From sequence record OQ743992: DNA of 64,000 nucleotides; one strand, 5' to 3'. A program made the translations under genes and the position numbers. Below, one piece after another: positions 2,153-49,185 of the stretch; the first letter of the stretch is position 1, and each line of letters starts with the position of its first letter. The notes below the pieces were generated by a model. The model did not search any database. It was not told the origin of the DNA and was given only the letters and a program-made list of their open reading frames with translations. The stretch comes from Escherichia phage vB_EfeM_pEP20.

Positions 2153-2494
2153 TTAACTGATGAATATTTTTTCAGGCTTTACATAGCTGATACGCTGACT
2201 TTTTAGCAGGCTATCCCATAACAAGGCGGCAATGTGCCCATATCCGGCCTCACGCAGCCCCTTCATCGTTTCAACTCGACTCTCAAAACGATTTGCGTAA
2301 TACTCGCTATTAAGTGTCGTTTTGTTCCCTTCGTTATCTGTATGGATGATTTGCATCACTTGAAAGGGGCTGACATCCTCGCCTTTGTTCCACTGCTCAA
2401 AGTATTTTAGGCACTGCATAGGTGACATCTTATCACTTACTTGAGTTGACCAAGATGAATCTTCTTTATCGGTAATTACAGTTACATAAGCCAT
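2153..2494 (-). CDS. Hypothetical early protein (113 aa)
   Basis: ORF plus cassette RBS. Confidence 0.5.
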   Translation of the reverse strand: MAYVTVITDKEDSSWSTQVSDKMSPMQCLKYFEQWNKGEDVSPFQVMQIIHTDNEGNKTTLNSEYYANRFESRVETMKGLREAGYGHIAALLWDSLLKSQRISYVKPEKIFIS

Positions 2495-2566
2495 TTTAGA
2501 ATCTCCTAGTTTAAGGATTTTATTTAGTGGGGAAGGTCATTCCCTCCCCGTTGATTGACAATTTAC
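2495..2566 (-). repeat. Type-A intergenic cassette
   Basis: ggggaaggtcattccctcccc hairpin plus GGAGA RBS. Confidence 0.6.
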
Positions 2567-2585
2567 AGATTTTTATCAGGCTTGT

Positions 2586-2819
2586 CTAGTCTTTTTCAAT
2601 GATAATTTCATATTGACCATCGACACTGTCAAAATAGACGCCGTCTTCATCTTCTGTCTTAAAGTAGCATTGAATATCATCACTGGCGGGATAGTCTTGT
2701 CTTGCTATCTGGCAAACTTGAATAGCATTTTCTTTACTCCCTGTAAACTCCTCAAGCCCTTTAAAATCACATGAATGACCATTACAAATAGAAAGGATAA
2801 GATAAACGGTTGTAAGCAT
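2586..2819 (-). CDS. Hypothetical small protein with hydrophobic N-terminus (77 aa)
   Basis: ORF; N-terminal MLTTVYLILSICNG; no cassette upstream. Confidence 0.4.
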   Translation of the reverse strand: MLTTVYLILSICNGHSCDFKGLEEFTGSKENAIQVCQIARQDYPASDDIQCYFKTEDEDGVYFDSVDGQYEIIIEKD

Positions 2820-2882
2820 GATTTAAGCCCTTTAAATGGCCCTGTATGGGCCTTAAGTTGGAAGTTGGTGTCTTTGTACTGA

Positions 2883-3446
2883 TTAACCTAAAAAGTCTTT
2901 TAAATTGCGCTCTGTGATGTTTGCCGTGATTTTATCCAGCAAGTCACAAAACACGGAACTATCACCGCTATTCTGTACAATTTTCGCCATACTTAACAAA
3001 TCATCGTCAACATAGCCTAAATTGCGGTTAGTTGCATCTGGTACAAAGAAAGGTGCATACATCGCACTAAATTTCGTCGAGTGAAGGCCAATAATCCAAT
3101 TTTTATCAAAGTGTCCGGTAAAGCTGGCGATATCGCTCATGTTGTCACAAGAATAATCATCCTCTAGCTCTTCCTCTGGGATATCCATCTCAATGACAAT
3201 TACGTCCTGCGTTTCCATTTGGAAAGCTGCCGTAATAAGCCCAGATTCTAAAGCGTTTTGAATGCAGCGTTCACGAATGTAAGAATCTTCCTCATCTTCC
3301 AGACATTCCGTTTTGATAATCTTGTTCATTGGGTAAACGTAGAAACAATCATCCATGTAGGAGCAGTTCCAGATTCCTTCTGGCTTGTCACCACCATTCA
3401 GCAAGTTTACAAAGTTTTTGAGGGTAGTGCCGTGATAGCATTTCAT
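2883..3446 (-). CDS. Putative PARP/diphtheria-toxin-like (H-Y-E class) ADP-ribosyltransferase-like protein (187 aa); tentative
   Basis: N-terminal YHGTTLKNFVNLLNGG resembles PARP HGSRTTNFAGILSQG and toxin SYHGT; followed by SYMDDCFYVY (compare YMFGKGIYF) and a candidate catalytic Glu in VIVIEMD; type-B cassette upstream. Confidence 0.4.
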   Translation of the reverse strand: MKCYHGTTLKNFVNLLNGGDKPEGIWNCSYMDDCFYVYPMNKIIKTECLEDEEDSYIRERCIQNALESGLITAAFQMETQDVIVIEMDIPEEELEDDYSCDNMSDIASFTGHFDKNWIIGLHSTKFSAMYAPFFVPDATNRNLGYVDDDLLSMAKIVQNSGDSSVFCDLLDKITANITERNLKDFLG

Positions 3447-7216: not shown

Positions 7217-7472
7217 TTTTGGATTCTCCAGTTTAGGAAGTGGGCTGGCTTGCCCGTCTGATGCAAATATTAGATAACCATACTCAAAGAGTCAATAGGA
7301 ATTTTAAAAATATTTTTGCAAAAAACTGTAATGAAACGGGCGCACGCGACTACCACAAAACAGAACTACAATCAAGAATTATTTTTCAATCAGCTACAAA
7401 TTTTTCTGTTGACTTTTCTTTTCAGATGTGGTAGCCTTGTGAGAAATGGCGACATCCCCACCTGCACCCACC

Positions 7473-7651
7473 TACCTGCACAATTCTAAAATGATTTTTC
7501 TTGCCCGACCTGAGCGGGGTCTGCACGTTTTGAAAATAAAAAAACCCTTTGGAGATTACCTGCACAGTTTGAAAATGAATTTTCTCTTTGGAGTTCAAAA
7601 TTTTCTCTATAGATTTCTCTACAGAACTCTACCTGCACAAATCTGAAATGA
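7473..7651. promoter_or_regulatory. Three direct copies of 22-bp motif TACCTGCACA(a/g)(a/t)T(c/t)TGAAAATGA at ~7473, 7557 and 7630, in a 500-bp intergenic region
   Basis: Read directly; about 80-bp spacing; candidate promoter or operator sites between two minus-strand gene blocks. Confidence 0.4.
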
Positions 7652-7724
7652 AAAAGCCCTCCTTACCTGAAAAATTTACCAGATAAGAAAGGCTTAGTCT
7701 ATTGTGAATATACTACGAAGTTTC

Positions 7725-8510
7725 TTAGTTCTTTGCGTCTAAGAAGGTAAGCTCTGGTGAAGAGAAGATTAACTCAATATCCTCATCAGTTCTTGCATAG
7801 ATATAAGCATCTGCATCACTGCCAAATGTTACTGCAATTCTGTGATTGCTCTTCGACAGGTGGGTAACTAGAGCGTTACTTAGAGACATCTTTTCAACCG
7901 GAGGGTTACTTTGATGTATCTTGCCTTTTCTTCGTCTGAAGAGGGTAACTGCATCATTAGTGAACACTACTACACCTGCAAAGTATTCTGGTTCACAGTA
8001 GTTCTTCCAACCTGAGCGTAACTTGTGGTACATCTCTCCTTCATAGACATATAGATACACATCTACACTCTTCATCACTTGATTAATGATAACTGTGACG
8101 GCTTGAGGGTCTAGTCCACCGATACCTGCACCAATCATAGGTAACCCAACTTTCTTCAACTGATTGACTTCACAGTATCTGTTAAGCTGTTTCAAAGATG
8201 ACTCTAAAGCACTGTATCGGGCATCTTTACCAGTCTTAAGCTGAGTGTAAAGGTTAGCTATACGACCTTGTTTTAAACGTGCTACAGAGAAATTACCTAG
8301 CAAATTTTCACAGGGTTTGTAGCCTATACCACCTGCATACAGATAAACTTCTGTATCAGTCTCATATGCTTTTGGGTAAAGTTTAGAAATCTTGTCAGCG
8401 ATACCTGCACCCATTAAGTTCATACAGTTGCAACCGTGACCGATGACGTCAAACTTACCTTTATCAAATGCTGCAAAGATATCACCATTGATGATTTTTA
8501 CAATACCCAT
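7725..8510 (-). CDS. Macrodomain protein (TARG1/OARD1- and DarG-like N-terminal domain plus about 110-aa C-terminal domain of unknown function)
   Basis: GDIF...HGCNCMNLMGAGIA and LPMIGAGIGGL resemble TARG1 GDLF...MGAGIA and MPRIGCGL; last gene of a coupled operon. Confidence 0.6.
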   Translation of the reverse strand: MGIVKIINGDIFAAFDKGKFDVIGHGCNCMNLMGAGIADKISKLYPKAYETDTEVYLYAGGIGYKPCENLLGNFSVARLKQGRIANLYTQLKTGKDARYSALESSLKQLNRYCEVNQLKKVGLPMIGAGIGGLDPQAVTVIINQVMKSVDVYLYVYEGEMYHKLRSGWKNYCEPEYFAGVVVFTNDAVTLFRRRKGKIHQSNPPVEKMSLSNALVTHLSKSNHRIAVTFGSDADAYIYARTDEDIELIFSSPELTFLDAKN

Positions 8511-8711
8511 TTAACATCTCTCCCAAGATTCTTTATCTTCTGAAGGTTTTACACGTTGTCCTTCGTGGTCTACCCAGATACACCCGCAGCCTTCACAGAT
8601 TACTGGCATTGCATAACCAGCTTTAAAGTCGTCTTCAGTGATAAGACCTTTTAAGTCTCCTGTATCACGTCCGAACATTTCGATAGAACAGTCTTTGCAG
8701 AAGTCAGCCAC
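8511..8711 (-). CDS. Small Cys-rich (zinc-ribbon-like) protein (66 aa)
   Basis: CKDC...CEGCGC; GTG start overlapping the upstream stop; its stop abuts the macrodomain ATG. Confidence 0.45.
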   Translation of the reverse strand: MADFCKDCSIEMFGRDTGDLKGLITEDDFKAGYAMPVICEGCGCIWVDHEGQRVKPSEDKESWERC

Positions 8712-8937
8712 GAATAATTACCTCTTGAGTGATAATACCTTTACCACAACGACTTTTAAAATCTTCTAATGGTTCAGAGAAGAAGTCACGGAAATGGTTA
8801 CTACACTCACGTTTCAGCACCTTCTTGTAAGTTAACACATCTTTTTCTGCAAACGGGATGACTTCATTTCTCCCTATGAATACTGCTGAACTTACAATCT
8901 TACGAGTCTTTTTATTTCTGGCTAGTATTACTTTCAT
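8704..8937 (-). CDS. Hypothetical protein (77 aa)
   Basis: ORF in translationally coupled chain. Confidence 0.4.
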   Translation of the reverse strand: MKVILARNKKTRKIVSSAVFIGRNEVIPFAEKDVLTYKKVLKRECSNHFRDFFSEPLEDFKSRCGKGIITQEVIIRG

Positions 8938-9238
8938 AGTTTACCTTCTCAGTTAGCTCATATAAATCAACATGCTCAATATTGTCAATGTTGATATTAA
9001 TCTTTTTGAAACGTTCTATCACTTCGTTGTCAGTCATCCATATTAGACACCAATGATTCTGAATGGATTCTTCAAGAAGGTCAACACAATCTTTAAAAGT
9101 TTTTGTATCACTTCTCGTTCCGACTACTGCGATTGTTCCATATAACCACTTACCATTACCATAAGTTACTTGTGCTACACCAACTTCTTTATCATTCTCA
9201 TAGTAAACGGCTACAAAATCTCTTCCATTAATCTGCAT
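8912..9238 (-). CDS. Hypothetical protein (about 108 aa)
   Basis: Start moved to ATG (MQINGRDF...) preceded by GAGGAG 7 nt upstream. Confidence 0.4.
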   Translation of the reverse strand: MQINGRDFVAVYYENDKEVGVAQVTYGNGKWLYGTIAVVGTRSDTKTFKDCVDLLEESIQNHWCLIWMTDNEVIERFKKININIDNIEHVDLYELTEKVNYESNTSQK

Positions 9239-9542
9239 TTGTAAGCTCCTCTGTTGGTAACTCACCATTTTCAGCAAAGTACTGAAGGTATGGCAATAAC
9301 TCTTTCACCTGTTCTTGGTTGAGTTTCATTCTTTGGTTACCTACAAAATCTTTGCCTACTAATGCTGGGATATCAAGTGTTTTCCAGCCACCATCTAGGT
9401 ACTGAACAGAGACCTCTTTAGCACCTAACCAGATACATGGTTCATATGATGAACTTTCTTGTAAAGTACAAATCTCTCCTTTAGCATCTTTAAATTCTGC
9501 ATAAGAAAATCCACGATTTGTTGGCTGGAATTGCATAATCAT
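9228..9542 (-). CDS. Hypothetical protein (104 aa)
   Basis: ATGA start/stop overlap with the upstream gene. Confidence 0.45.
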   Translation of the reverse strand: MIMQFQPTNRGFSYAEFKDAKGEICTLQESSSYEPCIWLGAKEVSVQYLDGGWKTLDIPALVGKDFVGNQRMKLNQEQVKELLPYLQYFAENGELPTEELTNAD

Positions 9543-9808
9543 TTCCTCGTTTTAAGAACTGCTAAGATTTCTTTAGAGTCTGGTAAGAACCATGTGTAGT
9601 GATTCTCTTTGATTTCTGGATGAGTGTCAACCTTTATTTTGCACTCTTTACCAACATGCTTAAGCTGTGCTGTGACACCTTGCATAAAGATATGGCACAT
9701 CACGTTATCCATAATGGTTGGTGAGAAATCAACCCGCATATAAGTTTCTTTTGGTCGTGGTAGTAGTAAGTACCCTTCTACATAGAAAGTATCTTCATTC
9801 TCTGTCAT
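9539..9808 (-). CDS. Hypothetical protein (89 aa)
   Basis: ATGA overlap with the lipoprotein gene stop. Confidence 0.45.
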   Translation of the reverse strand: MTENEDTFYVEGYLLLPRPKETYMRVDFSPTIMDNVMCHIFMQGVTAQLKHVGKECKIKVDTHPEIKENHYTWFLPDSKEILAVLKTRK

Positions 9809-10074
9809 TGCTGTTTGTTTCCTAATAAAATCATATCAATAAGGTTATTAGCTTTGATTGTGCACTGGTAAAAACCATCACGATAAAACTCAAGGGCTGC
9901 TGCCACATCGCTGCCAGTATTACCTTTGACAGTGAATCTTGATTCTTCTTGAGTGTACTTGTCACTCTCACTTACTTGGGAGTTTTTGAATGTACTGTTC
10001 ACTTTGTTCGTTGAACACCCTGACATAATTATCAGTAACACAAACATTATAAAACTCTGGCTTAGTCTTTTCAT
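9805..10074 (-). CDS. Lipoprotein (signal peptide plus lipobox IMSGC); o-spanin-like position, embedded in the 3' end of the upstream TM-protein gene
   Basis: MKRLSQSFIMFVLLIIMSGC; own RBS AGAGGT; 107-nt out-of-frame overlap with 9968-10315. Confidence 0.45.
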   Translation of the reverse strand: MKRLSQSFIMFVLLIIMSGCSTNKVNSTFKNSQVSESDKYTQEESRFTVKGNTGSDVAAALEFYRDGFYQCTIKANNLIDMILLGNKQQ

Positions 10075-10315
10075 ACGTTAGTACCTCTTTTGTGTGCTTA
10101 TTCTTAGCAAGCACATCTTTCAAATCATTTTTGTAATTGGTGCTGAGTGTGGCTAAACCTTCCTGATAAGCATCTTTAGCAACACTTATTAGTTTCTCAT
10201 TATTTAGCTCAGCTTCAGCAACTTGGTAGTCTCTGTAAGAGTATCCTCCCCAGACACCTGCCCCAACTAAGAAAACAATTATGAAAGTAGCTTGGCAGAA
10301 CTCTTTAAATGTCAT
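9968..10315 (-). CDS. N-terminally membrane-anchored coiled-coil protein (i-spanin-like), 115 aa
   Basis: TM helix FIIVFLVGAGVWGG then helical region; RBS caGGAGAttgttaaATG; first gene after a terminator. Confidence 0.4.
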   Translation of the reverse strand: MTFKEFCQATFIIVFLVGAGVWGGYSYRDYQVAEAELNNEKLISVAKDAYQEGLATLSTNYKNDLKDVLAKNKHTKEVLTYEKTKPEFYNVCVTDNYVRVFNEQSEQYIQKLPSK

Positions 10316-10334
10316 TTAACAATCTCCTGAAATG

Positions 10335-10355
10335 AAAAAGGCTCCCGAAGGAGCC
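10335..10355 (-). terminator. Intrinsic terminator (GGCUCC-UUCG-GGAGCC then U5)
   Basis: Perfect 6-bp stem with tetraloop followed by a U run on minus-strand RNA. Confidence 0.55.
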
Positions 10356-10367
10356 TGTATCTTAACC

Positions 10368-10832
10368 TTAACCGAGGACTTTAGCAAGGACATTTGCAGC
10401 CATCGAAGAAGCTTTTGCAGCAGCAGCTACTCCAGCTTTGACGGTGCTATCCTTGATAGCAGATACCGTTGCAGCATCAGTAAAGAGATAAGTAGTTGTT
10501 TTAGAACCACTTGTAAAGGAAAGCATAAGAGCAGTTTCCAGATTGAAAGAGCGATACGGAGCACCTTCTTTAACGATACCTTCAGCACCTAACTCTGAAG
10601 CCATACCCATATCATAGATAGTCATCAGGTTTTCTTTGTGTGCAGTCGTTGAACCAGCACCTTTGACGTGTTTCTTAACATTCAGAAGAGCACGATACTC
10701 TCGGATGTTACCGTCTGCTTTTACATTGACAGCACGGAAGATTTTACCCTCAAAGTTGCTTTTGATAATGTTACGAACTACTTCAGATTTGTTTGCCGTA
10801 ACATCCAGTGCTACCGTAATGATATTGTTCAT
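10368..10832 (-). CDS. Hypothetical protein (154 aa, Ala-rich amphipathic C-terminus)
   Basis: ORF. Confidence 0.45.
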   Translation of the reverse strand: MNNIITVALDVTANKSEVVRNIIKSNFEGKIFRAVNVKADGNIREYRALLNVKKHVKGAGSTTAHKENLMTIYDMGMASELGAEGIVKEGAPYRSFNLETALMLSFTSGSKTTTYLFTDAATVSAIKDSTVKAGVAAAAKASSMAANVLAKVLG

Positions 10833-10842
10833 AAGTTTTCTC

Positions 10843-11538
10843 TCAATGTTTTACTAACATAGTTTTAATGTGCGGAAGGATTCTGTTTACCTTCTGAACA
10901 TTCTTCTCTGTATCTTCTATAAAACATACTATATTAAAGTAAGGAAGAATGCAAGACTGAATCATCCTCACTTTCAAACTTTCTGCATTTATAGAGTTAG
11001 TTCCAAAACCACGCATAAAAAGCATGTAATCATGCTCTATGTTATGCCTTAAAAACATCTCAGTAGGTATTCTCTGAGATTCACCTCTAGCTGTCAAGAG
11101 TCCAATGGCAGCATGATTAGCAATTGCATCAATGATACTGAAAACATACGTTGGTTTTGCTCTTACAGAGTCAAGAAGATTAGTGTACTGTGAGAATGAC
11201 CCATCAGTCAATTCCGTTGAGCAATCTTCGTGATTAAAATTTGTAAGAACACCATCAATATCTGCTAAGATGAGGTTACCTTTTTCTACAAGGTCTTTAT
11301 TGACTATGACTAAACTGTCACGTCTTACACCTATAGATTGTCCAGTCTCTTTGTCCACAACGTTCACAATTAGTTCTGATGTGTGGAACTCTTCAAGTGA
11401 ACATACAACTTCTCTTGCAGTATCTTCAAAATCTCTGCACTGTTCTGGAGTCCATACACAGGAATCAAGACCTAACTCATGAGAATGCAAGTCGTAAGCA
11501 TGGCACAGTACTTCATCAGACTTTCTTAATTTTTTCAT
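10843..11538 (-). CDS. HAD-superfamily phosphatase-like protein (231 aa)
   Basis: Motif I ILADIDGVLT (DxDG) and LLTARGE. Confidence 0.5.
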   Translation of the reverse strand: MKKLRKSDEVLCHAYDLHSHELGLDSCVWTPEQCRDFEDTAREVVCSLEEFHTSELIVNVVDKETGQSIGVRRDSLVIVNKDLVEKGNLILADIDGVLTNFNHEDCSTELTDGSFSQYTNLLDSVRAKPTYVFSIIDAIANHAAIGLLTARGESQRIPTEMFLRHNIEHDYMLFMRGFGTNSINAESLKVRMIQSCILPYFNIVCFIEDTEKNVQKVNRILPHIKTMLVKH

Positions 11539-12064
11539 GATTTACCTTAGAAATGTTTGTTGCAAATTCACATTGAGCGATGACTTTCATGTTGTTATAG
11601 ACATCTTGAGAGTATTTCTTAGCTTTAGGAATTTTGTACGAATACCCAGCATTATAAGATGCTAGAACTTTTTGTAAAGTCTTCTTTGACTTTGGCTGAC
11701 CATGTACCTTCGTCCAAAACTCAAGCTCTTTGTGTGTTTCTTTTGCGGCATAATCAAAATCTTTTAAAAGTTTCTTTTTAGCCACATTAGGACTAATTTT
11801 GTTACGCTTTACAACAGTCTTCAAGTGATTCTGGAAAATACCATAGTCATGGGTCTTTTTATTCTCTACCTTCAGACCTAACTCTGACTCTTGTAAGGCT
11901 ATAGCAGCTAGAGTGATACCCCAACCTTTACCCATATTATTCTCACCATACTGGTAAGCTTTTAACATGTTTACTTTTTGGCTAATTGATAGCTCTGGGC
12001 AGTCAACTGCATAAGATAAGTGTGCTGTAAACATTAAGCACAAACCTAGAATCAATTTCTTCAT
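11516..12064 (-). CDS. Secreted lytic transglycosylase (SLT-domain) protein with cleavable signal peptide
   Basis: MKKLILGLCLMFTAHLSYA signal; QESELG...DYGIFQ and ASYNAGYSY resemble SLT motifs ES...GLMQ and AYNAG. Confidence 0.55.
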   Translation of the reverse strand: MKKLILGLCLMFTAHLSYAVDCPELSISQKVNMLKAYQYGENNMGKGWGITLAAIALQESELGLKVENKKTHDYGIFQNHLKTVVKRNKISPNVAKKKLLKDFDYAAKETHKELEFWTKVHGQPKSKKTLQKVLASYNAGYSYKIPKAKKYSQDVYNNMKVIAQCEFATNISKVNHEKIKKV

Positions 12065-12126
12065 TGGTTCTCCTGTTTAGTTTATCGTGACATCAATTAT
12101 ACAGCACTCTGCACAAAATACAAATA

Positions 12127-12151
12127 AAAAAGGCCGCCGAAGCAGCCTTTT
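12127..12151 (-). terminator. Intrinsic terminator after rIIB (GGCUGC-UUCG-GCGGCC then U6AU3)
   Basis: Stem-loop plus U run on minus-strand RNA. Confidence 0.55.
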
Positions 12152-12164
12152 AAGAAATTACTTA

Positions 12165-13274
12165 TTAGATTTCACGTTTACGTTGAGAGATGAGTTCACC
12201 AGCAGTACCAACGATGACATGCAAAGCCTCAGTCTTACCGTCCCATGCTTTCAGCACTTTACGTTGGTTATCAACGATTGCTGTAACTTCATAACGAGAT
12301 GAACGCATCTTCATATCGTTGTAATCAGTTGGAACAGATACAACATCTCGTGGATGGACACGAACCTTCAGAATTGTATCACCTGAGAAGCAGCGAACAT
12401 AATCCCAAGCACCAACATGAAGACCCTGAGAGCAAGTCACGTTACGGTTATTATCAACCATCCAACGTGGCATTTCTACAATGTTACCCAAATCATTAGG
12501 TACTTTGTATGTGCGGGAGTCAACCAGCTTGCCTTCATGAGTAGAGACTTTCTTCCAGCCAATGATGTAGCCTTCTTCATCAATCTCAACATCAAGGTGA
12601 GATACGAATCCCCAAAGTTGTTCTACAGAATCTTTAGATGGGTTTTCCATCAGTTTTTCGAAGAACATTACAAGTCGTTCAAAGCCTTTATCACCAGCCT
12701 TCATCATGTGAAGAATACGGTCAACCAGAGTAGAACGCATCTCAATAGCACCGTAGAATAGCTTGTCACCTTTGATTGTGATAGCCCCCTGAGTGAAGTT
12801 TTCGATAGACTTACGAATGTTCATCAGTTCGAAAGCTTTCTTATACTCACCGGATACAACAGCCATTACGATTTCTTTGTAGTTCGGATGGGTAGATTCA
12901 ACGATTTCAGAATCTGCACCGAAAGTCATGATAACAGAGTCACCAGTAATCATGTACTCAATCTGGTTGCCATTCTGCATAGCTTCATGCAGTTTATTTA
13001 CTGGAGCTTTCTGTACATCCTTGTTAACAGCCTTTTTAACTGGCTTGTCAGCTTTCTTTTTAACTGATTTAGCAACTTGCTTCAAAGTCTTCGTAGCTGG
13101 TTTAGAAGCTACCTTTTTCTTACCTTTTAAGGTTGCTTCATGACGCTCTACAGCACGACCAACTGAACGGGTTGAAGTGTTGAACTTCTGTGCAATCGCT
13201 GTTTTAGTCAGCTTACCTTCTTTAACCAGTTCGTAAATTTCTGCATCAATCTGTGCTTTAGTTTTAGTAGTCAT
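12165..13274 (-). CDS. rIIB: rIIB-like protein (369 aa)
   Basis: Immediately downstream of rIIA; C-terminal VHPRDVVSVPTDYNDMKMR matches my recollection of T4 rIIB. Confidence 0.7.
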   Translation of the reverse strand: MTTKTKAQIDAEIYELVKEGKLTKTAIAQKFNTSTRSVGRAVERHEATLKGKKKVASKPATKTLKQVAKSVKKKADKPVKKAVNKDVQKAPVNKLHEAMQNGNQIEYMITGDSVIMTFGADSEIVESTHPNYKEIVMAVVSGEYKKAFELMNIRKSIENFTQGAITIKGDKLFYGAIEMRSTLVDRILHMMKAGDKGFERLVMFFEKLMENPSKDSVEQLWGFVSHLDVEIDEEGYIIGWKKVSTHEGKLVDSRTYKVPNDLGNIVEMPRWMVDNNRNVTCSQGLHVGAWDYVRCFSGDTILKVRVHPRDVVSVPTDYNDMKMRSSRYEVTAIVDNQRKVLKAWDGKTEALHVIVGTAGELISQRKREI

Positions 13275-13353: not shown

Positions 13354-15720
13354 TTAATCGTAAATTGTAGTACCTTCTGGAACACACTTCACATCAAAGC
13401 CTAAGAACTTACTCACTTCGATGGGTGACACTTTATTCCAATCTAAATGGGAAAGCAAGAAGTTTTCTTGTTTTCTTTTTGAAAGGTAGTTTGTCAGTTT
13501 GATAACCATGCGGTCACCCGCTTTCTTAATCTTTTTGTACAGTTTTGTATCATTGTCAAGGCATGACTTCAAATCCTGAAGAACACTGATAGTATAAGTG
13601 TATGCAAACGGTGCAGCCACATACTGAATCTTACCAAACATTGCCTCAACAGCATTCTCATTACCTTCTAAGAAGATGGTTTTGTTTGTATCTCGTGAAT
13701 AGCAATACCCGCGAGAAATCTTCCTGTTATTGAATGTAAAGTTTCTGGCAATAATCCAGCTACTTGTAAGGTCAAGAACACCATTCATGTAGATGCGTGT
13801 CATATATCTGTTATGATTAATCCAATGAACATCAGTTAAGCTATCGTTCAAGAGCTTCTCATCTACTTCAATCCAGTCTTCTGGTATCTTTTTCCAATTT
13901 GCTTTTCGGAAAACATAGACTGTCTTTCCAATAACATTCGCAACTGACTTAGCTACATCTTCTGGAGATGAGCAAAAACACTCACCATCAACTGTGTCAC
14001 CAACTGCCTTAATGTAAAGCTGAGGCTCTTCAATTGTGTCTAAGTCTTCTGATACCTCTTTGTAGGAAGCTACACCTTCTGCTGGAACAGCTTTCCAGAG
14101 TTTTACAACACCTCTTACAGCTTCTTTACGCTGGTAATGGTGTTCCTTATCAGACATTTTCACAATCTTTAACAAGCTTTTATCAAGTTTGTGCAGATTG
14201 ATTAAGTCATCTAACTCTTTTTCAGTAGAGAATACAAAGACAATACCATTGTATCTGTGAAACAGACTTGACTCACTGGCATAGTCTCGACATGCACCAC
14301 GCAAGATTTGGTTGCGTCCTACAGTCTTCTCAGTACCGTTTTTATTGCGACGGTCATTTATAATAAACAAAAACTGTTCAATTTGGCTTTTACGCATTGC
14401 GCCAAAGATATTGAACATACTTGCCTCTTGAGTGTAGGAAAGTGCTGTTGCACGAATCTTACTCTCTAAAGAGTTGAACTTGACATAAGCAACTGGGTCA
14501 TAAAGGTAATCTACTTTAGGGATGTTGTTTCCATTCCTATCAACCTTAATATTACCTTTACCATCACGTTCATAAATAACTGAGCCGTCTTCTGCGTAGA
14601 TAATTCCACGACGAATGTTTAGCAATTCTTCTTCCATAGAATCAAGCTTAACGCCTCCCCACTCTAGCTTTGGGCATACAGCATTAAACATCTCTCGTGA
14701 GTTCAAACGTAACTCAGCATAAGCCTGTGCAGCATCCATGAGTGTAGGTTGACTATTAACTTTCTTGATAACATCCTTTGTAATTGCTTCAGTTATCTTT
14801 TTAGTAGCCTCAATGATAACATTTTTTGTCGTATCATTCATCTGCAATGCTTCACGAGAAGCTGCAATAGCAACTGAACCAATAGGCATGTAGATGTTTA
14901 CAAGGTCTACGCTCCTACGGAAAAATTCTGGCAAGACTTTGAAGAAATCATCACCAAGTAATGCTTCCATGTTCACTGGATAGGCAATATTACCCATCAC
15001 CACATTAAACTCTGTCCTGTTACCACTAGAACGCCAGCTTTGCTTATGAATCATGGCATCATAAACACCTTCTTCACGGGCAATGACATTCATATCTGCT
15101 AATACATCGTCATACTCGATATTGCTTTCTGGTTTTACAGCAAAGTATGAGTATACGTGACCAGCTTCTTCAAAGAACTTTGAGATACGATGGTCAGCAA
15201 CTGCTACACGTACAGCTAAACCATTAGGTTCTTTTGTTGGGTTAGTGGTTAGCTTAGTCACTTGAGGAATACCATTCTCAAGATAAACAGAGTATTTATT
15301 AACAACACCATCAACGTAGCTCGATACTGTGAATGACTGAGCAATTGCAAACGGTGACTTTGAGCCGATACCCATTGCACCAATGTAGTCATTAGAGTCA
15401 TTCTTTGTAGAAGCCCCGTAGTTCAGATACAGACTCATCACTTTGTCATGAGTTAATCCAGTTCCAAAATCACGAACTTCAAAGTAAGGCTCAAAACGAG
15501 TAGGTAAATGCACATGGAACGGGATGTTCTCTTTTCCAGCTTCTTTCTGAGCATCTACTGCGTTACATGACAGTTCACGAATGACTGCCCTTTCTTTAAA
15601 GGTATATACACCAGAACTCAAAAGACTGAACATTTCAGGTGTCATTGTAATCTGTGCTTGAGACGTCTCTAAAGAAGTTGAGCTTTTAATCACTTCTGCG
15701 TGGTCGTTTACCATGCGCAT
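13354..15720 (-). CDS. rIIA: rIIA-like protein (788 aa, GHKL ATPase-like N-terminus)
   Basis: RELSCNAVDAQ (compare T4 RELITNMIDAH) and IGAMGIGSKSPFAIAQSFTVSSY (compare T4 IGGFGLGSKSPF...SITSY). Confidence 0.8.
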   Translation of the reverse strand: MRMVNDHAEVIKSSTSLETSQAQITMTPEMFSLLSSGVYTFKERAVIRELSCNAVDAQKEAGKENIPFHVHLPTRFEPYFEVRDFGTGLTHDKVMSLYLNYGASTKNDSNDYIGAMGIGSKSPFAIAQSFTVSSYVDGVVNKYSVYLENGIPQVTKLTTNPTKEPNGLAVRVAVADHRISKFFEEAGHVYSYFAVKPESNIEYDDVLADMNVIAREEGVYDAMIHKQSWRSSGNRTEFNVVMGNIAYPVNMEALLGDDFFKVLPEFFRRSVDLVNIYMPIGSVAIAASREALQMNDTTKNVIIEATKKITEAITKDVIKKVNSQPTLMDAAQAYAELRLNSREMFNAVCPKLEWGGVKLDSMEEELLNIRRGIIYAEDGSVIYERDGKGNIKVDRNGNNIPKVDYLYDPVAYVKFNSLESKIRATALSYTQEASMFNIFGAMRKSQIEQFLFIINDRRNKNGTEKTVGRNQILRGACRDYASESSLFHRYNGIVFVFSTEKELDDLINLHKLDKSLLKIVKMSDKEHHYQRKEAVRGVVKLWKAVPAEGVASYKEVSEDLDTIEEPQLYIKAVGDTVDGECFCSSPEDVAKSVANVIGKTVYVFRKANWKKIPEDWIEVDEKLLNDSLTDVHWINHNRYMTRIYMNGVLDLTSSWIIARNFTFNNRKISRGYCYSRDTNKTIFLEGNENAVEAMFGKIQYVAAPFAYTYTISVLQDLKSCLDNDTKLYKKIKKAGDRMVIKLTNYLSKRKQENFLLSHLDWNKVSPIEVSKFLGFDVKCVPEGTTIYD

Positions 15721-48813: not shown

Positions 48814-49185
48814 TTACTTTTCAGTATTCTTTGTGTTCTTTTCAGTAATAGCTTGGAGAGCTGATACTGATTGAGCCAGATTGTTCACACTATCAGAGAA
48901 TTTATCAAGAGTCTTAGTAAGTTTTGCGTTCTCACCCTTAACATTCTCTAACTGAACTTTCTGGTTCTCCATCCCTAGCTGAAGCAGCCTCATATCAGAC
49001 TGTAAATCACGAATAGCTGAATAATTACTTTTGGAATAATTATCTAACTGCTGTAACTTTGTTGTGATAGACACTTCTTGTTTACCATCCGAAACTTGCA
49101 TGGTGGTATACATCCCAATAACACTAAAAATACCAACTACAATTGCACCAATATTATTTTTAAAAGCTTCCTCTAGCCACTTCAT
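48814..49185 (-). CDS. Membrane-anchored coiled-coil protein (123 aa)
   Basis: N-terminal TM IGAIVVGIFSVIGMY then heptad-rich region. Confidence 0.4.
   Translation of the reverse strand: MKWLEEAFKNNIGAIVVGIFSVIGMYTTMQVSDGKQEVSITTKLQQLDNYSKSNYSAIRDLQSDMRLLQLGMENQKVQLENVKGENAKLTKTLDKFSDSVNNLAQSVSALQAITEKNTKNTEK

Follow-up and report, generated by a model that had tools for sequence, protein, structure and literature searches.

The 64,000 nt of Escherichia phage vB_EfeM_pEP20 analysed here (sequence record OQ743992; below, the window) carry on the minus strand a pair of overlapping genes that we take, with a probability of about 0.9, to encode the two-component spanin of a Felix O1-like phage, in the arrangement termed ‘overlapped’. 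The first gene encodes a 115-aa membrane protein (the i-spanin) and the second an 89-aa lipoprotein (the o-spanin). Downstream follows a run of small genes that ends with one for a macrodomain protein; upstream lies a gene for a signal-peptide protein with features of the SLT domain of lytic transglycosylases. An initial annotation of this DNA, made from the letters alone, had seen a spanin-like pair here and had offered two explanations of its unusual surroundings: an atypical lysis cassette in the early region, or envelope proteins with a role outside lysis. Its spanin reading is borne out. The pair already appears in a published census and is annotated as i-spanin and o-spanin in GenBank.

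The gene pair and its sequence family

The window belongs to a Felixounavirus, a myophage of the Felix O1 type. The region 9500–12300, which holds the pair, matches many such genomes at 96–98% nucleotide identity (close matches are Escherichia phages SME50, skuden and AYO145A and Salmonella phage S19cd), and 255 phage records align to 80% or more of it.

For these phages the spanin pair is already known and catalogued. In the supplement of Kongari 2018 (PMC6139136), Felix01, wV8 and Moogle are entered as ‘ovl’, each with an i-spanin gene of 348 nt, an o-spanin of 89 aa (70 aa when mature) and an overlap of 107 nt. The window pair has exactly this geometry, and the Felix01 i-spanin sequence listed differs from it by a few residues. 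At the homologous site an i-spanin and an o-spanin are annotated in Moogle and Mordin (both CPT annotations), phiSUSP1, skuden, JN01 and others, and in Moogle, Mordin and phiSUSP1 the o-spanin is the same 270-nt open reading frame (ORF) as in the window.

The i-spanin has a hydrophobic segment, FCQATFIIVFLVGAGVW, at residues 6–22 (Kyte-Doolittle mean 2.0), and its gene has a ribosome-binding site (RBS), AGGAG, 8 nt before the ATG. The protein is predicted to be a small type II inner-membrane protein with one N-terminal transmembrane (TM) domain and a mostly helical periplasmic domain. Its periplasmic Cys92, within the motif YEKTKPEFYNVCVTDNYVRVFNE, is conserved. Against PHROGs it matches phrog_1152 ‘Rz-like spanin’ with an expect value (E) of 9e-42.

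The o-spanin begins with MKRLSQSFIMFVLLIIMSG, then CST: a basic n-region, a hydrophobic core and a lipobox M-S-G-C (IMSG, then C), in which Cys20 is the predicted lipidation site. Ser at +2, with no Asp there, predicts sorting to the outer membrane. The lipobox is kept in every relative examined, as I/M-S-G/A-C or, in Kolesnikvirus SeKF_13, as TASC. The gene has an RBS of its own, GAGG, 9 nt upstream of the start. The mature protein contains a conserved periplasmic cysteine, Cys71. Its PHROGs match is phrog_4180 (E 9e-51), with phrog_456 ‘Rz-like spanin’ weaker (E 6e-5).

Both subunits have homologs outside the genus, and there too they come as a pair. In phiEco32 (Kuravirus) the i-spanin is 36% identical (E 3e-17) and the o-spanin matches with E 1e-9; in the P2-like Yersinia phage vB_YenM_324 (YenM324) the values are E 9e-13 and 2e-11. 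The YenM324 pair stands in a canonical cassette, in the order holin, endolysin, i-spanin, o-spanin. Paired genes with a +1 overlap are conserved across Ounavirinae, Kuravirus and one Peduoviridae phage. By sequence comparison the family of the pair extends to phiEco32-like and some P2-like phages but does not include the spanins of lambda or T4. Cys92 and Cys71 are both kept in the homologs of phiEco32, YenM324 and SeKF_13. Spanins need homotypic disulfide links (Kongari 2018, PMC6139136), a rule that the conserved single cysteine of each predicted periplasmic part fits.

Relative to the i-spanin, the o-spanin is read in the +1 frame. Over the 107 nt of overlap, the i-spanin C-terminus is encoded together with the o-spanin signal peptide and lipobox. 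For a test of dual coding, the 511-nt unit was aligned from nine Ounavirinae genomes, down to 78% identity. In the part coding for the i-spanin only, 52 of 85 variable sites fall at codon position 3 of the i-frame, with a nucleotide diversity (pi) of 0.163; in the o-spanin-only part, position 3 of the o-frame takes 44 of 64 (pi 0.190). In the overlap pi drops to 0.085, about half that of the flanking parts, and codon periodicity is gone, as expected for dual coding. The third frame of the unit contains 15–20 stops. These substitution patterns and the stop-filled third frame show that both genes are real, with both frames coding and under purifying selection. The overlap is recognisable at the DNA level in the distant relatives: a 68-bp stretch inside it is 79–85% identical to phiEco32-like phages, and a 74-bp stretch overlapping that one is 78% identical to YenM324.

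Every sequence feature reported in the initial annotation is present, at the coordinates it gave: the gene for a TM-anchored protein, the out-of-frame lipoprotein gene with its own RBS, the coupling of the latter through ATGA (TGA stop and ATG start overlapping; Moogle has the identical 4-nt overlap) to a run of genes ending with the macrodomain gene, and a lipoprotein that is not Pro-rich, with no proline in its 70 mature residues. Its label of Rz/Rz1-like embedding needs correction. The genes do overlap out of frame, but the architecture is ‘overlapped’ and not lambda-like ‘embedded’, because the o-spanin gene extends 163 nt beyond the i-spanin stop; nor is the lipoprotein proline-rich as that label would imply.

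Several points weigh against the assignment. Pfam and NCBIfam scans of both subunits gave sub-threshold noise only. In the literature searched no experiment that tests the spanins of Felix O1 turned up, and their function rests on architecture and homology. The census supplement (PMC6139136) gives the Felix01 i-spanin 58 of 88 residues as helical (66%) and 0 predicted coiled-coil segments; a single-sequence AlphaFold model of the window protein places helices at 27–71, but at a pLDDT of 51 it is too weak to back or deny a coiled coil. The term ‘coiled-coil’, used for this protein in the initial annotation, is thus not established. The promoter scan gave no sigma-70-like site between the terminator at 10356..10339 and the i-spanin ATG, and the window shows no enrichment of the T4 late motif TATAAATA, with 3 matches where 4.1 are expected and none of them near the spanins. 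Homology to the T4 spanins PseT.3 and PseT.2 was tried and rejected (E 17 and 8.3, none detectable), and the T4 comparison made below is therefore an analogy of organisation, not one of family membership. For the upstream SLT-like protein, the match to Pfam SLT (PF01464) has an E of 0.0012 and 18.8 bits, below the cut-off of 21.3.

Lysis genes, the SLT-like protein and other readings

The lysis genes of Felix O1-like phages, which encode a soluble lysozyme as endolysin, a putative holin and both spanins, are scattered (PMC4319497). The homolog of the Moogle putative holin lies in the window, unlinked from the spanins and ~39 kb from them. The Moogle lysozyme endolysin has no tblastn match in the 64-kb window; the endolysin of the group is a separate soluble lysozyme, encoded in the part of the ~87-kb genome outside the window. 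The putative holin homolog, of ~123 aa (124 aa in Moogle), has a hydrophobic N-terminal stretch and then a long, largely polar tail. Judged by eye, this topology looks more like that of an i-spanin or of the T4 T holin than like that of a classical holin with several TM domains; the assignment comes from annotation only.

The mechanism that we infer for the pair, in localisation, disulfide dimers, membrane fusion and expression timing, follows the established spanin model. The i-spanin would insert into the inner membrane by its N-terminal TM domain, its largely helical domain reaching into the periplasm. The o-spanin would be exported, lipidated at Cys20 and, given Ser at +2, delivered through the Lol pathway into the outer membrane's inner leaflet. 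The conserved C-terminal domains of the two would bind each other, giving complexes that cross the periplasm through the peptidoglycan mesh, and each subunit would probably homodimerise through its one conserved periplasmic cysteine. An intact wall would keep the complexes inert. Once the holin freed the soluble lysozyme endolysin and the wall was degraded, the spanins would join the two membranes by fusion and so finish lysis. Since an unbroken wall would restrain them, spanins could be made from an operon that is neither late nor devoted to lysis, as in T4.

The SLT-like protein (182 aa) has a predicted signal peptide at residues 1–19, MKKLILGLCLMFTAHLSYA, then VD, with a cleavage-site pattern of the A-x-A type conserved in homologs. 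It keeps the catalytic pair Glu59-Ser60 of lytic transglycosylases. In 15 homologs, down to 29% identity, Glu59, Gln78 (in a G-x-x-Q motif) and Tyr137-Asn138-x-Gly140 are invariant, and Ser60 nearly so. Cys22 and Cys165 are conserved, which suggests a periplasmic disulfide bond between them. Five more distant homologs have precomputed PF01464 matches, and against PHROGs the protein matches phrog_600 (E 1e-57). It is 32% identical to T4 Vs.1 over 174 columns (E 2e-16). With the protein as query, tblastn finds 2128 phage records, mostly of T4-like phages (gene vs.1), and the matches in RB14, Acj61 and PEi20 are annotated vs.1; the Felix O1 record notes the gene as ‘protein in vs-regB intergenic region’.

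Since a PDB sequence search with this protein found no match at E <= 1, fold comparison was used. An alignment-based AlphaFold model (pLDDT 84.8) was compared with the PDB by Foldseek. The top 13 matches are all GH23 proteins (g-type lysozymes, a GH23 chitinase, EtgA, MltF and Cj0843), with phiKZ gp144 also among the best; for these 13 the probability is 0.82–1.00 and the TM-score 0.39–0.52, with E only 6.5e-3 to 0.28. From motifs, homology and model together, the protein is assigned to the T4 Vs.1 family as a GH23 lytic transglycosylase that is exported by Sec and has its signal peptide cleaved off. Vs.1 was noted earlier as an ORF conserved in T4-type phages for which no role is known, and vs.1 orthologs match SLT marginally (PMC1524935).

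A reading of the N-terminus of the SLT-like protein as that of a signal-arrest-release (SAR) endolysin was considered and rejected: the segment is short (~13 hydrophobic residues) and is followed by an A-x-A-type cleavage site conserved in all homologs.

The initial annotation was right about the signal and the SLT features of this protein; the secreted endolysin, one of the two roles it offered for it, is not supported. Most likely the protein is an accessory periplasmic peptidoglycan-cleaving enzyme and not an endolysin, because T4 e mutants fail to lyse although they carry vs.1, as classical genetics has established, and because Felix O1-like phages carry a separate lysozyme. In T4, Vs.1 coexists with endolysin E and cannot replace it.

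We give little credence to the stronger proposal of an atypical early lysis cassette, in which the exported SLT-like protein would be a true secreted endolysin acting with the adjacent spanins, like signal-peptide and SAR endolysins elsewhere. The protein does combine a signal peptide with intact lytic-transglycosylase motifs, its gene lies 1.2 kb upstream of the spanins, and some GenBank and UniRef records name it ‘putative lysin’ or ‘Lysin’. Nevertheless, the group has a separate soluble lysozyme annotated as endolysin, no holin adjoins (the nearest candidate is the one 39 kb off), a terminator and two unrelated genes stand between the SLT gene and the spanins, and the N-terminus looks like a cleavable signal peptide and not like a SAR anchor. 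The family, moreover, occurs in ~2100 phage records, mostly of T4-like phages that have endolysins of their own. With the lysis genes scattered in this way, a cassette in the early region is not supported.

Still less probable is that the membrane protein and the lipoprotein serve superinfection exclusion or receptor masking, like the T5 Llp or Cor lipoproteins, or injection. What speaks for such a role is an early-type region beside rIIA and rIIB, coupling to non-lysis genes, and a lipoprotein without proline. By analogy these three features are all matched in T4, whose proven spanins are PseT.3 and PseT.2. The T4 record shows the genes in the order alc, pseT.3 (i-spanin), pseT.2 (o-spanin), pseT.1, pseT, with 4-nt overlaps at pseT.3/pseT.2 and at pseT.2/pseT.1; these two spanin genes do not lie close to holin t and endolysin e, and in the o-spanin family of T4 there is no proline-rich region (Kongari 2018, PMC6139136). 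Such a context is therefore compatible with spanin function. An exclusion or injection role also faces the homology of both partners to a pair inside a canonical holin–endolysin–spanin cassette, the obligatory +1-overlap pairing conserved in Ounavirinae, Kuravirus and a Peduoviridae phage, the conserved periplasmic cysteines, and the fact that no other spanin candidate is annotated in these genomes.

That the 89-aa lipoprotein ORF is a chance out-of-frame ORF that is not translated, as its omission or shortening in many GenBank records might suggest, is refuted as far as sequence analysis allows and has next to no probability: ORF, lipobox and RBS are conserved to ~78% nucleotide identity and beyond, substitutions in its own part favour third positions of its own frame, diversity is halved in the overlap, and homologous lipoproteins exist in phiEco32, YenM324 and SeKF_13.

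Gene order, neighbours and annotation

The features around the spanin pair are collected in Table 1; all lie on the minus strand of the window.

Table 1. Features of the window around the spanin gene pair, and o-spanin annotations with late starts in related records
Feature	Coordinates	Strand	Evidence or remark
rIIA	15720..13354	minus	
rIIB	13274..12165	minus	
rIIB terminator hairpin	12151..12128	minus	terminator search; equivalent annotated in AYO145A
Sigma-70-like promoter TTGTAT-17 nt-TATAAT, 3' of rIIB terminator	within 12087..12151	minus	read in sequence; equivalent annotated in AYO145A
SLT-like protein gene, signal peptide	12064..11516	minus	182 aa
PseT-like protein gene	11538..10843	minus	overlaps SLT gene by 23 nt
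Hypothetical protein gene	10832..10368	minus	154 aa
Rho-independent terminator-like hairpin, AGGCTCCTTCGGGAGCCT then TTTTTCATTT	10356..10339	minus	terminator search; annotated terminator in AYO145A and Mordin
i-spanin gene	10315..9968	minus	ORF; 115 aa
o-spanin gene	10074..9805	minus	ORF; 89-aa prolipoprotein
Dual-coding overlap, 107 nt	9968..10074	minus	i-spanin C-terminus / o-spanin signal peptide and lipobox
ATGA junction, o-spanin TGA stop / ATG of next gene (9808..9539)	9805..9808	minus	sequence CAATGACAG
Small ORFs, tightly coupled run	9808..8511	minus	
Macrodomain protein gene, final member of coupled run headed by the spanins	8510..7725	minus	Pfam Macro, E 1e-7
Strong terminator after macrodomain gene	7695..7654	minus	terminator search
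Homolog of Moogle ‘putative holin’	48817..49185	minus	tblastn, 93% identity; Moogle annotation
Late-start o-spanin annotations in retrieved loci	L001 5644-5841; L002 5274-5495; L006 675-893; L007 690-896; L008 807-896; SeKF_13 7891-8019		coordinates in the retrieved loci

The sigma-70-like promoter downstream of rIIB drives the SLT gene; it was read in the sequence, and is absent from the list that the promoter scan returned at the threshold used. The hairpin in front of the pair, 23 nt 5' of the i-spanin ATG, is conserved, and it parts the unit of the SLT and PseT-like genes from the unit that begins with the spanins and ends with the macrodomain gene. With this terminator so close upstream and no recognisable promoter behind it, the latter unit is therefore transcribed by read-through or from a phage promoter that was not recognised. 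A search of the literature for transcriptome data on Felix O1 gave no relevant result.

The PseT-like gene is a neighbour of the spanins and not part of the pair. Its product matches phrog_3970 (E 1.5e-132), has a HAD-type DIDGV motif (DxDGV) at residue 93 and no P-loop kinase motif, and reaches only E 0.11 against T4 PseT by BLAST. By these motifs it is probably a phosphatase only, in which case the database name ‘polynucleotide kinase’ over-reaches.

The macrodomain protein of the window is 34% identical to T4 Tk.4 (E 2e-24) and matches phiEco32 gp37 with E 7e-10. In three lineages a macrodomain gene comes after a spanin pair: in the window (7725–10315, minus strand), in phiEco32 (2267–3202) and in SeKF_13 (7524–8809), the last two in coordinates of the retrieved loci. 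The spacing differs: the phiEco32 o-spanin stop overlaps the start of the macrodomain gene by 1 nt, in SeKF_13 that gene begins 8 nt past the o-spanin stop codon, and in Felixounavirus five or six small ORFs lie between. The order SLT, PseT-like, spanin, macrodomain is kept from Felixounavirus to Kolesnikvirus, and the adjacency of spanins and macrodomain gene also in phiEco32.

It is conceivable, though we think it improbable, that a pre-lysis ‘envelope-conditioning’ module, conserved across Ounavirinae, is made up of the Vs.1-type transglycosylase, the spanins and the macrodomain protein. The exported transglycosylase would then widen the peptidoglycan mesh locally and early in infection, and spanin complexes would thread through it and assemble before the endolysin acts. 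In T4 a distance of 73 kb separates vs.1 from the spanin genes. Such a module, if real, would give a function to the widespread orphan family Vs.1 (~2100 phage records).

Past the macrodomain gene and its terminator, ~450 nt (7240–7700) hold only short overlapping ORFs on both strands, and relatives annotate no gene there. Two records named for other hosts, GU169904 (‘Staphylococcus phage SA1’) and MG065668 (‘Campylobacter phage A126’), are 97–100% identical to this Felix O1-like region; these matches probably reflect contamination or mislabelling of the records.

Many GenBank records of Felix O1-like phages begin the o-spanin too late, giving it 29–73 aa instead of 88–91 aa, or label it hypothetical. 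The late start removes the lipoprotein signal peptide. Phage vB_Si_DR094 was published as having only an i-spanin (PMC8300805), a remark that may reflect the same artefact.

As a catalogued spanin of a well-known phage genus, in an unusual context that repeats the T4 pattern, the pair offers little by way of discovery. The practical value lies in annotation: the o-spanin shortened or omitted, the Vs.1-like transglycosylase labelled ‘lysin’, and the HAD-phosphatase-like gene called ‘polynucleotide kinase’. The biological question nearby is the role of the widespread Vs.1-type exported transglycosylase during infection.

Comparison with known systems

T4 Vs.1, encoded by the ORF between regB and vs, has nearly the same length as the SLT-like protein (181 against 182 aa), an N-terminal signal sequence and the SLT motifs, and T4 vs.1 is co-transcribed with the macrodomain gene tk.4; unlike the window protein, it has an insertion after the first helix. 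The lytic transglycosylases of secretion systems (EtgA type) and the g-type lysozymes share with it a single GH23 domain of ~150–180 aa, Sec export and the catalytic Glu, but at 14–17% identity and a TM-score of ~0.5, and the SLT-like protein is without an associated secretion machine.

Closest to the window spanins are those of Felix O1, wV8 and Moogle: the same pair of 115 and 89 aa, with the 107-nt +1 overlap, the AGGAG RBS context and 77–100% protein identity. They differ by a few amino-acid substitutions only, and the window represents a further isolate of the same genus. The phiEco32 and YenM324 spanins belong to the same sequence family in both subunits and have the overlapped architecture, with the C-terminal motif KP-F-N-C-D-Y-FNE in the i-spanin and E/A-Y-R/Q...C in the o-spanin. 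Here identity is only 26–40%, and the YenM324 pair, unlike that of the window, directly follows holin and endolysin.

T4 PseT.3/PseT.2 are alike in organisation. They are unlinked from holin and endolysin, lie in a prereplicative-type run beside a PseT or PseT-like gene, and show a 4-nt overlap of the o-spanin gene onto a non-lysis gene. Sizes are similar, at 117 aa for the T4 i-spanin and an annotated 99 aa for the T4 o-spanin coding sequence (83 aa in Kongari 2018) against 115 and 89 aa here. In contrast to the window genes, with their 107-nt overlap, those of T4 are ‘separated’, overlapping by 4 nt only; PseT.3 has no periplasmic Cys and PseT.2 has two, whereas each window subunit has one.

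Lambda Rz/Rz1 belong to the same functional class and likewise pair a type II protein of the inner membrane with a lipoprotein of the outer membrane, the latter encoded in the +1 frame, with one or more periplasmic cysteines in each subunit. Rz1, however, is fully embedded in Rz, proline-rich and 40 aa when mature, whereas the lipoprotein gene here is overlapped and its mature product has 70 aa and 0 Pro; and the lambda pair lies inside the S-R-Rz/Rz1 late lysis cassette, the window pair outside any cassette.

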